A DNA stretch of 30,539 nt from Actinomycetes bacterium. Its GTDB lineage: Bacteria > Actinomycetota > Aquicultoria > CAJVYJ01. Numbering within the stretch: position 1 is the stretch's first letter; the number at the start of each line of letters is the position of its first letter. The notes under the pieces were generated by a model, which was given only the letters and a program-made list of their open reading frames with translations, ran no database searches and was not told the origin of the DNA. The position numbers and the translations under genes were made by a program. The stretch lies in NCBI GenBank assembly GCA_030597945.1, contig JAUVQW010000001.1, positions 1 through 30,539 of the forward strand. Direction: 5' to 3'. Below are positions 12,490-14,097 of this stretch, piece after piece.

Positions 12490-12536
12490 TTGACAATCTC
12501 TATGTGGATATATAATATTATAGCTATAAGTCTTAT
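12490..12536 (+). promoter_or_regulatory. arsR promoter with overlapping palindromes (candidate autoregulatory operator)
   Basis: TTGACA at 12490-12495. The -10 is TATAAT at 12511 (15-nt spacer) or TAATAT at 12513 (17-nt spacer). Palindromes ATAATATTAT (12512-12521), TTATAGCTATAA (12518-12529) and ATAAG-T-CTTAT (12526-12536). SD GAGGTGA. Confidence 0.65.
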
Positions 12537-12550
12537 TGAGGTGATAATAT

Positions 12551-12838
12551 ATGCCAGGTTCGGAAGATTTCTTCCACGCGATGTCTGATAATACTAGACA
12601 AGAGATATTGGTCTTGTTGGATAAGAAGCCTAGATGTGTAAGAGATATAGCAAAAAAATTTTGTATCTCCCAGCCATCGATATCTAGACATCTGTCAGTA
12701 CTTAAAAATGCCGGCCTGGTAAGTGATGAGAGAAACGGCCAAAAGATTATTTATTCTCTAAATCAAGATTGGTTGCGCAGCTGTTGCGAGAATAACTTTG
12801 CCAGGTTTAGCTGTTGCAAAAGTCTTTTTAAATCTTAG
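12551..12838 (+). CDS. ArsR/SmtB family metalloregulator with C-terminal Cys pairs
   Basis: FHAMSDNTRQEIL, wHTH CVRDIA...SQPSISRHLSVLKNAGLV, ERNGQKIIYSL; C-terminus SCCENNFARFSCC. Confidence 0.92.
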   Translation: MPGSEDFFHAMSDNTRQEILVLLDKKPRCVRDIAKKFCISQPSISRHLSVLKNAGLVSDERNGQKIIYSLNQDWLRSCCENNFARFSCCKSLFKS

Positions 12839-12859
12839 ATTACTAAGGAGGTGACGTGG

Positions 12860-12922
12860 ATGAAAAGATATATGGTACCTCGAATAGCCCATTGTGAGTC
12901 TGGTTGCACTAGACCGTCCTGA
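12860..12922 (+). CDS. Unannotated 20-aa Cys-containing peptide MKRYMVPRIAHCESGCTRPS
   Basis: Near-perfect SD AAGGAGGTGA (12845-12854), 21 nt after the arsR stop, ATG at 12860, TGA at 12920-12922, terminator downstream. Below the ORF-track length cutoff. Confidence 0.6.
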   Translation: MKRYMVPRIAHCESGCTRPS

Positions 12923-12958
12923 GCACGACGCGAAACTACTCATCAGGTTAAAAAGTTA

Positions 12959-12992
12959 AGGCCCCCGAAATTGGAGGGTCTTTTCTTTTTTT
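12959..12992 (+). terminator. Intrinsic terminator of the arsR-peptide transcript
   Basis: Stem AGGCCC-CC / GG-(A)-GGGTCT with loop GAAATT, followed by TTTCTTTTTTT; lies between convergent genes. Confidence 0.8.
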
Positions 12993-14097
12993 ATCTGTAT
13001 TTATAGAGTTGATCGAGGGTAACAATGGAGTAGCCTGCTGATCTTAGATGCTCTATGATCTTGGGTAGAGCCGCTACCGTTACCTGTCTATTGCCTCCAC
13101 CATCATGAAGTAAAACGATTGCCCCCGGTCTTACTTGCAACATCATCGTCTGAATGATGCTATCTACTGACTCCGCCTGCCAATCCATAGGATCAACCGA
13201 CCACAGCGCAATCGAGTAACCTCGTCTGGTCACCGCTTCTCCTAGCAGGCCGTTTAGGCGACCGAAGGGGGGGCGAAACCATCTGGGTGATTCCCCAGTT
13301 TTTGCGAGAATAAGATCATGGCTCACTTGAATCTCGTTTTCCACGACCGCCTGATCCTTATCATCGAGACGACTGTGAGTGAGCGAGTGGTTCTCAATAT
13401 CAAAGCCTTGGTCCTTCATATATTTTATAGTGGCAGGATATTTTTGGACCTGCGTCCCTACGACAAAAAAAGTTGCCGGCACATCGTAGGATTTTAGAAT
13501 ATCAACTATTTGTTTTGTATATGGGAGCAAAGGGCCATCATCAAAAGTAAGCGCCACCATTCTTTTGGGATTAATTTTTCCTCTCTTTAATATTGTCGGT
13601 TTCGGCTTACTAACTATCTCTTTCTTTACAATAAGGCCGCTATCTTCTAGGTAATACTCTCTTATTTCGCCAGGCGATCCAGGTCTTTTAACAACTACAA
13701 ATGGACCGCTGCCTTCGATGATCGTCCGCGGTGTAATCTCCAGGGTTCTTTCTTTAATCACTTCCCGTAAATTTCTTCCTTGGACCATCTCAATCCTAGA
13801 CCCGCGGCTTATCAATGAGGATTCCTTGACCCGTGAGCCATCTAGGTAAATCGTTGGCTCTTCTCCCAAACCGTTTAATACGATCTCTCCGTCATGGCTG
13901 AGAAGATTGCCGGTCTCTGGTTTAAAACCTACTTTTCTTAGTGCGTCGCCTACTGTCTTCTCTTTAGTTATATAGTTTTCATTGTTTATCTTGATCGGTA
14001 TCTTTGCGTAGGCAGAATAAAAAAAGACCTCGATCCCGATAAGGGTGATCACGGCCACCAACAGACGGATAATCATCTTTTTTTTACTAATAATCAT
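12991..14097 (-). CDS. Membrane-anchored polysaccharide deacetylase (NodB/CE4) with putative ubiquitin-like/G5-type stalk
   Basis: N-terminal TM; ALTFDDGP, ENHSLTH, FRPPFG, LWSVDPMDW, IVLLHDG. The stalk region (KTVGDAL...PGSPGEI...KKEIVSKP) resembles DUF348/G5 modules (inference). Confidence 0.88.
   Translation of the reverse strand: MIISKKKMIIRLLVAVITLIGIEVFFYSAYAKIPIKINNENYITKEKTVGDALRKVGFKPETGNLLSHDGEIVLNGLGEEPTIYLDGSRVKESSLISRGSRIEMVQGRNLREVIKERTLEITPRTIIEGSGPFVVVKRPGSPGEIREYYLEDSGLIVKKEIVSKPKPTILKRGKINPKRMVALTFDDGPLLPYTKQIVDILKSYDVPATFFVVGTQVQKYPATIKYMKDQGFDIENHSLTHSRLDDKDQAVVENEIQVSHDLILAKTGESPRWFRPPFGRLNGLLGEAVTRRGYSIALWSVDPMDWQAESVDSIIQTMMLQVRPGAIVLLHDGGGNRQVTVAALPKIIEHLRSAGYSIVTLDQLYKYR

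Follow-up and report, generated by a model that had tools for sequence, protein, structure and literature searches.

Downstream of an arsR-family gene in an Actinomycetes genome, we found a small unit composed of a cysteine-containing micro-peptide, a spacer of 8 nt and an H-type pseudoknot. Comparison with related sequences makes it almost certain that this peptide-spacer-pseudoknot unit is conserved and real, and that the three-way junction drawn over the same nucleotides in a preliminary description is not. The pair of peptide and knot is spread over at least six bacterial phyla. Hundreds of phage contigs carry the knot, and the pair itself was found in none of the viral contigs.

Genomic context of the element

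The window analyzed here is a stretch of 30,539 nt from a MAG that is 82% complete. On its forward strand, a sigma-70-like sequence at 12490..12519 (TTGACA, 17–18 nt, TAATAT or AATATT; 10 of 12 consensus positions) would serve as the ArsR promoter, and AT-rich inverted repeats nearby are a possible operator. The gene at 12551..12838 encodes an ArsR/SmtB-family metalloregulator of 95 aa (NF033788 above cut-off; PF01022). Like its close homologs, this protein carries a Cys following the first helices and two Cys-Cys pairs at its C terminus. A Shine-Dalgarno sequence, AAGGAGGTG (12846..12854), with similar counterparts in relatives, leads the micro-peptide ORF at 12860..12922, whose 20 codons specify MKRYMVPRIAHCESGCTRPS and whose conserved core runs up to the last Cys codon at 12905-12907. 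The spacer that separates this codon from the pseudoknot (12908..12915) is fixed in length and variable in sequence, and the 27-nt pseudoknot, identified by covariation, occupies 12916..12942.

An intrinsic terminator lies at 12958..12992, with a hairpin at 12958-12982 followed by a U-tract (fold about -14 kcal/mol, z -2.7). There is also a terminator-like match on the minus strand, and the terminator is probably common to the arsR-peptide side and the convergent gene. This convergent gene, at 12991..14097 on the minus strand, belongs to the polysaccharide deacetylase family, with NCBIfam PdaB/NodB-like matches below equivalog cut-offs; it is a neighbor and lies outside the element. The convergent deacetylase arrangement is repeated in four relatives (G001, G002, G003 and G005). 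A terminator ends the window locus, its paralog in the same genome and the loci of four relatives. A near-identical terminator hairpin is also found without peptide or knot in a genome of the same order (L009:1492-1536).

The paralog is a second peptide-knot-terminator unit (G000 contig C121:711-853, L653) that sits after a thioredoxin-like gene and before queD-, queE- and queC-like genes. The element is not an assembly error, since two public DNA assemblies, one of them possibly the source of the window, match it across this region.

Covariation supports an H-type pseudoknot

In the window, stem 1 (S1) of the pseudoknot pairs 12916-18 with 12927-29, L1 is C12919, 12926 is a bulge, L2 (12930-36) ends in AAAC, and stem 2 (S2) pairs 12921-25 with 12937-41. 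Relatives share the order SD, peptide core ending in HCxxGC, 8 nt, GUCC-loop-GAC-NNN-AAAC and then a stretch that can pair with the loop. A scan of GTDB genomes, in which the loop, the loop partner and the spacer length (6–11 nt) were left free, returned at least 120 loci; among the matches listed, these span Omnitrophota, Desulfobacterota, Bacillota, Zixibacteria, Planctomycetota, Actinomycetota and others. No claim made here draws on the unpublished genomes G227, G257 and G456.

Among the 125 anchored homologs in the matches listed, the S2 positions pair in fractions of 0.92–1.00, with double changes from G-C to A-U. Pair 12922:12940 is G-C in 108 of these homologs, A-U in 12, G-U in 4 and U-G in 1, and pair 12923:12939 is G-C in 119 and A-U in 6. 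The two sides of S2 change jointly on a rough tree (11, 11 and 13 joint changes; 6, 6 and 6). Because the genome search pattern had fixed stem 1, S1 was tested in phage contigs by requiring a base other than the consensus, for each of its three 5' positions; the partner was complementary in 275 of 275 phage copies carrying such a base. By these comparisons the H-type pseudoknot is well supported. Outside S2, the highest mutual-information pairs fall within the coding part, are mostly unpaired and track peptide subfamilies.

The window copy has a C-A mismatch in S2 at 12924/12938, which is present in 9 of the 125 anchored homologs among the matches listed. A pair between 12920 and 12942 could lengthen S2 in this copy and is not conserved. 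In the paralog, three A-U pairs replace G-C in S2 and a UAA lies in the loop.

The knot also varies elsewhere. A variant with AAAAGG for AAACUG (L512, L514, L517, L521, L531, L534, L550, L552, L561, L575 and others) includes a subgroup with a 7-nt spacer. Four loci (L163, L221, L244, L559) have a tandem second knot 27–38 nt past the first, and some phage contigs (L081, L115, L116, L127) carry a knot at several gene boundaries in succession, with as many as 5 knots in 15 kb. A U-tract after the knot was considered as a shared feature and dropped, being found in only 29 of 125 homologs among the matches listed.

The three-way junction and recoding

The preliminary description had proposed a three-way junction with a mutually exclusive switch helix, and had suggested stop recoding at the UGA of the peptide. 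This model, whether taken as a junction switch, selenocysteine recoding or a frameshift or read-through signal, is now hardly credible. Its helices can certainly be drawn. P1 (12894-99/12938-43, with one G-U), P2 (12900-04/12908-12), P3 (12915-18/12927-30) and the alternative helix (12918-22/12943-47) are all complementary at the coordinates given, AGACC at 12911-15 is complementary to 12977-81 in the terminator, and the UGA at 12920-22 terminates the small ORF and sits in the P3 loop. However, the junction folds at -9.5 kcal/mol with an ensemble probability of 0.006, against an MFE of -11.1 kcal/mol, and its stability is not beyond chance (z = +0.52, with 131 of 200 shuffled sequences equally stable). 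In the 125 anchored homologs among the matches listed, pairing in P1, P2 and the alternative helix is what base composition predicts (observed and expected pairing, for example, 0.30 vs 0.31, 0.16 vs 0.23 and 0.13 vs 0.13). The junction helices therefore show neither covariation nor more than shuffle-level stability, the two outcomes that the preliminary description had itself set against the model. The proposed switch helix is not conserved; in a relative's low-depth contig, the changes listed (among them 12915, 12926, 12931, 12932, 12936, 12944 and 12945) break it and spare the knot stems. What survives of P3 is its inner three pairs, which are stem 1 of the pseudoknot. The broader idea of a structured, probably translation-coupled RNA overlapping the end of the peptide holds as well, with a pseudoknot in place of the junction.

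For recoding, one point in favor is that a stop immediately following the last Cys is most often TGA (9 of 11 in the genome set) and that the genomes concerned carry selA. TAG and TAA are also found at this place, however, UGA occupies the window position in only 10 of 127 homologs among the matches listed, and a TGA replacing the last Cys codon was seen 0 times in metagenomes. In the window genome, 82% complete, selA, selB, selD and tRNA-Sec scored below cut-off, and selA was not found in 17 Omnitrophota carriers. Selenocysteine insertion with a bacterial SECIS was rejected on two grounds: no conserved UGA aligns with Cys, and the Sec machinery was below cut-off or not found in the carriers just named. 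A -1 frameshift was likewise rejected, with a slippery heptamer in 0 of 127 loci listed and a -1 frame that stays open as far as the next gene in 0 of 15; read-through found no support either. Downstream genes are spread about evenly over the three frames, and stops close off most of them. The excess of TGA after the last Cys possibly comes from G as the second spacer base (62% of homologs listed). One locus in a selA-bearing genome (L005) has two in-frame TGA after HCEEGC.

The micro-peptide is conserved as protein

In 125 homologs listed, the entropy at codon positions 1, 2 and 3 of the micro-peptide is 0.95, 0.89 and 1.76. Among the matches listed, an in-frame stop occurs in 1 of 125 peptides, compared with 61 and 67 in the other two frames, and an SD-led start is present in 123 of 127 homologs. 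At positions that were not forced by the search pattern, variation falls mostly on the third codon position, and Arg and Leu are drawn from both of their codon families. Comparison thus shows the micro-peptide to be under protein-level selection. Its conserved core takes 16–19 residues to reach the last Cys of HCxxGC and includes, besides Cys, conserved aromatic, Leu/Ile and Ala residues; the tail after GC is unconstrained. The stop codon, which may be TAA, TAG or TGA, falls anywhere between -8 and +34 nt, counted from the knot (127 homologs listed). The peptide matches no Pfam or NCBIfam family, and literature searches by literal sequence, on coremin in bacteria and on peptides with HCxxGC returned nothing relevant. 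A loose peptide pattern applied to 401 same-phylum genomes gave many chance matches, as judged by a reversed control, and was left out of the counts.

The pseudoknot lies at a fixed distance from the last cysteine codon

The knot begins 8 nt past the last Cys codon in 126 of 127 genome copies listed, where 6–11 nt were allowed. We also selected on the peptide only, in metagenomes, allowing offsets of 0–29; the rules for family membership and variant knots were set after viewing the matches. Of 106 family members, 83 have a knot at 8 nt, 4 have one at 7 nt and 19 have none, so that no knot at any offset other than 7–8 nt was seen among 87 knot-bearing copies. Shuffled controls gave a knot match at 8 nt in 0 of 2360. 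Since the free tail makes insertions and deletions in the spacer costless to the peptide, the fixed length points to selection on the distance itself.

When the last Cys occupies the P site, the knot lies 11 nt from the first base of that site. The mRNA channel of bacterial ribosomes has room for 11 nt, and both tRNA binding and translocation are inhibited by stem-loops placed 11–12 nt from this base (PMC7282821). Phage knots that lack the peptide have a nearly identical geometry: their distance from the stop codon upstream peaks at 6–7 nt (32 of 113), which corresponds to 12–13 nt from the P-site base of a terminating ribosome.

A stop follows the last Cys directly in 13 of 19 knot-less peptides but in only 7 of 87 knot-bearing ones (Fisher p = 8e-8), and the contrast persists after collapsing at 70% identity (10 of 15 vs 2 of 31, p = 4e-5), although both p-values are overstated as kin are not independent. 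In six knot-less copies, a terminator hairpin starts 6–8 nt after the Cys. By comparison, then, a stop codon or a terminator hairpin can stand in for the knot. Five knot-less loci (L519, L546, L564, L613, L615) place a possible start codon 1–3 nt after the GC-stop, opening a short acidic frame; this arrangement is possible translational coupling.

The common denominator of these variants would be a ribosome at the last Cys, with the P and A sites alike compatible with the sequences, and it is likely that the function of the element involves a ribosome at this codon. An A-site ribosome is what a cysteine-starvation attenuator would require: the ribosome would wait with a Cys codon in the A site while the knot, then 14 nt from the P-site base, stays folded. 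The peptide has two Cys codons, though both were required by the search patterns, Fe-S and sulfur genes are among its neighbors, and uORFC-8-2 upstream of cysS offers a precedent (PMC8632094). We nevertheless regard this explanation as quite improbable, given that the Cys codons are not tandem, that non-Cys residues are conserved and that the downstream genes are not those of cysteine biosynthesis.

Gene neighborhoods

Neighbor counts rest on mechanical ORF calls and refer to the matches listed. The first downstream gene is Rrf2 in 21 loci; other neighbors include 4Fe-4S proteins, Hcp, ArsP permease, HMA/P-type ATPase, hemerythrin, Usp, Msr and rubrerythrin, and ArsR often lies upstream of the peptide-knot unit. 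A co-oriented gene is found within 200 nt downstream in 72 of 122 homologs and an opposite-strand gene within 200 nt in 36 of 122, while a co-oriented gene lies upstream in 95 of 120 loci. In two phage contigs (L018, L107) a tRNA-like sequence begins within ~20 nt after the knot, and at another locus (L008) one follows the terminator.

The frequent upstream gene is in keeping with a different use of the peptide, as the product itself. It would be a small metal- or thiol-binding peptide acting in trans, and the knot a surrogate stop codon or a mark of the 3' end, with translation in effect finishing at the last Cys irrespective of the tail. Both paralogs of the window genome are last cistrons before a terminator, and the complementarity of knot and immediate stop, together with the unconstrained tail, also fits. 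However, there is no known route to release a defined peptide at a pseudoknot, the co-oriented genes within 200 nt downstream are what a leader would have, and the 16–19 residues up to the last Cys fit inside the exit tunnel. On balance we think this reading unlikely, but worth keeping in view.

The pseudoknot resembles coremin

The knot has no covariance-model match in Rfam 15, STAXI included, either at gathering thresholds or at E 10; a scan of this kind had been proposed with the three-way junction and returned nothing relevant to it. STAXI (RF01728; PMC2864571) is likewise a small pseudoknot of bacteria and mobile DNA, but it is tandem and enterobacterial with UUCG loops, and the window genome has no STAXI match at E 10. 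Hammerhead, pistol and hatchet look-alikes were rejected as well, with no Rfam match and incomplete core motifs.

The closest likeness is to coremin, or xrRNA-C, with which the knot shares a GUC/GAC hairpin, C as the first loop base, an AAAC spacer and a loop-to-spacer pseudoknot (PMC6546385, PMC10520033, PMC10321173). With one 4-nt gap, 16 of 20 nt are identical in the window and 18 of 20 in the family consensus. The short 5' hairpin GUC..GAC and the conserved AAAC spacer agree with the published consensus (PMC10520033), and the S2 covariation agrees with the Watson-Crick pseudoknot between loop and spacer end of xrRNA-WCC. Other features differ. The coremin loop is YGAD or YGNNAD, whereas the knot has an 8-nt loop with C (57%) or U (42%) as its second base; a second hairpin after the spacer occurs in 3 of 124 copies versus 3.8 in shuffled sequence, and not in the window; S2 has 5 bp compared with 3 bp in xrRNA-WCC; and nucleotide 5 is not the G that xrRNA-WCC requires. 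Coremin belongs to plant and fungal RNA viruses, the knot to bacterial chromosomes, with a peptide at a fixed distance, and DNA phages. Because the loop rule and the second hairpin do not hold, the knot is coremin-like and not a member of coremin.

Besides blocking Xrn1, coremin stalls scanning ribosomes and promotes frameshifting; one variant of it is Watson-Crick paired (PMC10520033, PMC10321173). By analogy, the knot could stop a 5'-3' nuclease such as RNase J and stabilize downstream RNA, being switched off when a ribosome covers stem 1. The sequence identity speaks for such a roadblock, as do some phage knots just before tRNAs and the presence of RNase J in the window genome and 10 of 10 Bacillota carriers. 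Across the genomes searched, RNase J was found in 27 of 50, but in 0 of 16 Omnitrophota, Planctomycetota and Zixibacteria carriers, which are incomplete MAGs; this result in three phyla weakens the case for a general RNase J roadblock. Xrn1 resistance needs a second hairpin, which is missing, and here there would be only ~50 nt of unconserved RNA to protect. We therefore consider a roadblock improbable.

A proposed ribosome pause

We favor a model, which in our estimate is as apt to prove right as wrong, in which the leader micro-peptide and the knot program a pause at Cys that senses metal or thiol redox state. The knot would hold a ribosome that has the last Cys of HCxxGC in its P site and, lying at the mRNA entry channel, would slow the next step. 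This dwell would let the nascent His-Cys-x-x-Gly-Cys respond to a soft metal or to the thiol/Fe-S redox state. Stalling or release would then set access to what follows, be it the terminator, the knot or the next start codon, and the balance of the two would tune metal/redox-stress operons. At the window locus, where nothing co-oriented follows the element, as the preliminary description had pointed out, the output would for that reason be peptide release or stability of the arsR-peptide mRNA.

Several observations are consistent with this pause. The spacing is fixed across at least six phyla although the stop wanders, and no position beyond the one with the last Cys in the P site is common to every variant. 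The published inhibition by stem-loops, the phage stop-codon geometry, and the replacement of the knot by a stop or a terminator hairpin fit as well, as do the metal/redox-type neighbors and the stalling of scanning ribosomes by the related coremin motif. Compact structures 11–12 nt from the P-site codon are likewise found in frameshift stem-loops and luteoviral H-type pseudoknots (PMC7282821, PMC10321173); unlike those stimulators, the knot comes without a slippery sequence or frame bias. Against the pause, the downstream target is often missing, with a terminator and convergent gene here and in relatives and the opposite-strand genes counted above. A conserved antiterminator or SD-sequestering alternative fold was looked for and not found, gene contexts are mixed, and no single ligand stands out. 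The window copy itself carries the S2 mismatch, and a local helix competes with the knot there (pair probability 0.82 in a model unable to form pseudoknots).

Arrest leaders such as TnaC (PMC8429421) and CutF-like genes (PMC9973294) are similar in combining a short upstream ORF, conserved C-terminal residues and an RNA feature or stop at a defined ribosome position, and copper-sensing CutF-like genes also precede metal homeostasis genes (PMC9973294). As in those leaders, the ORF here is selected at the amino-acid level, judging from its SD, codon-position entropy and synonymous codons. From the spacing and the complementarity of stop and knot, we infer a ligand-dependent stall at a defined codon. 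The 20-aa peptide, however, has neither the signal peptide nor the C-terminal Pro-rich stalling motif of CutF-like proteins, and it differs from both leaders in its length of 16–20 aa, in having a pseudoknot where they have a rut site or SD stem-loop, and in often being last in its operon.

A wider reading, which we hold only tentatively, treats the knot as a portable, coremin-like surrogate for a stop codon that acts on bacterial ribosomes. In phages it would sit at the entry channel of ribosomes that are terminating, and anaerobic bacteria would use it to park a ribosome on an HCxxGC peptidyl-tRNA, which would act within the ribosome as a metal/thiol-redox sensor.

Significance

Despite their occurrence in at least six phyla, the peptide and the knot are uncatalogued in Pfam, NCBIfam, Rfam and the literature searched. 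The strong covariation of the knot offers a structural model for coremin, whose structure has been called unsolved (PMC10520033, PMC10321173, PMC6546385). As the element is only ~60 nt long, toeprinting, reporters and cryo-EM should be straightforward. Together, the conserved knot and Cys peptide suggest that many anaerobic bacteria control metal- and redox-stress genes through a ribosome-based element. Should the pause prove real, it would add a cytoplasmic metal/redox-responsive leader peptide to a short list and extend to bacterial translation a motif known from eukaryotic viruses; if the knot does act as a surrogate stop codon, the unit would be a new kind of nascent-peptide sensor, in which the pause is set by RNA.
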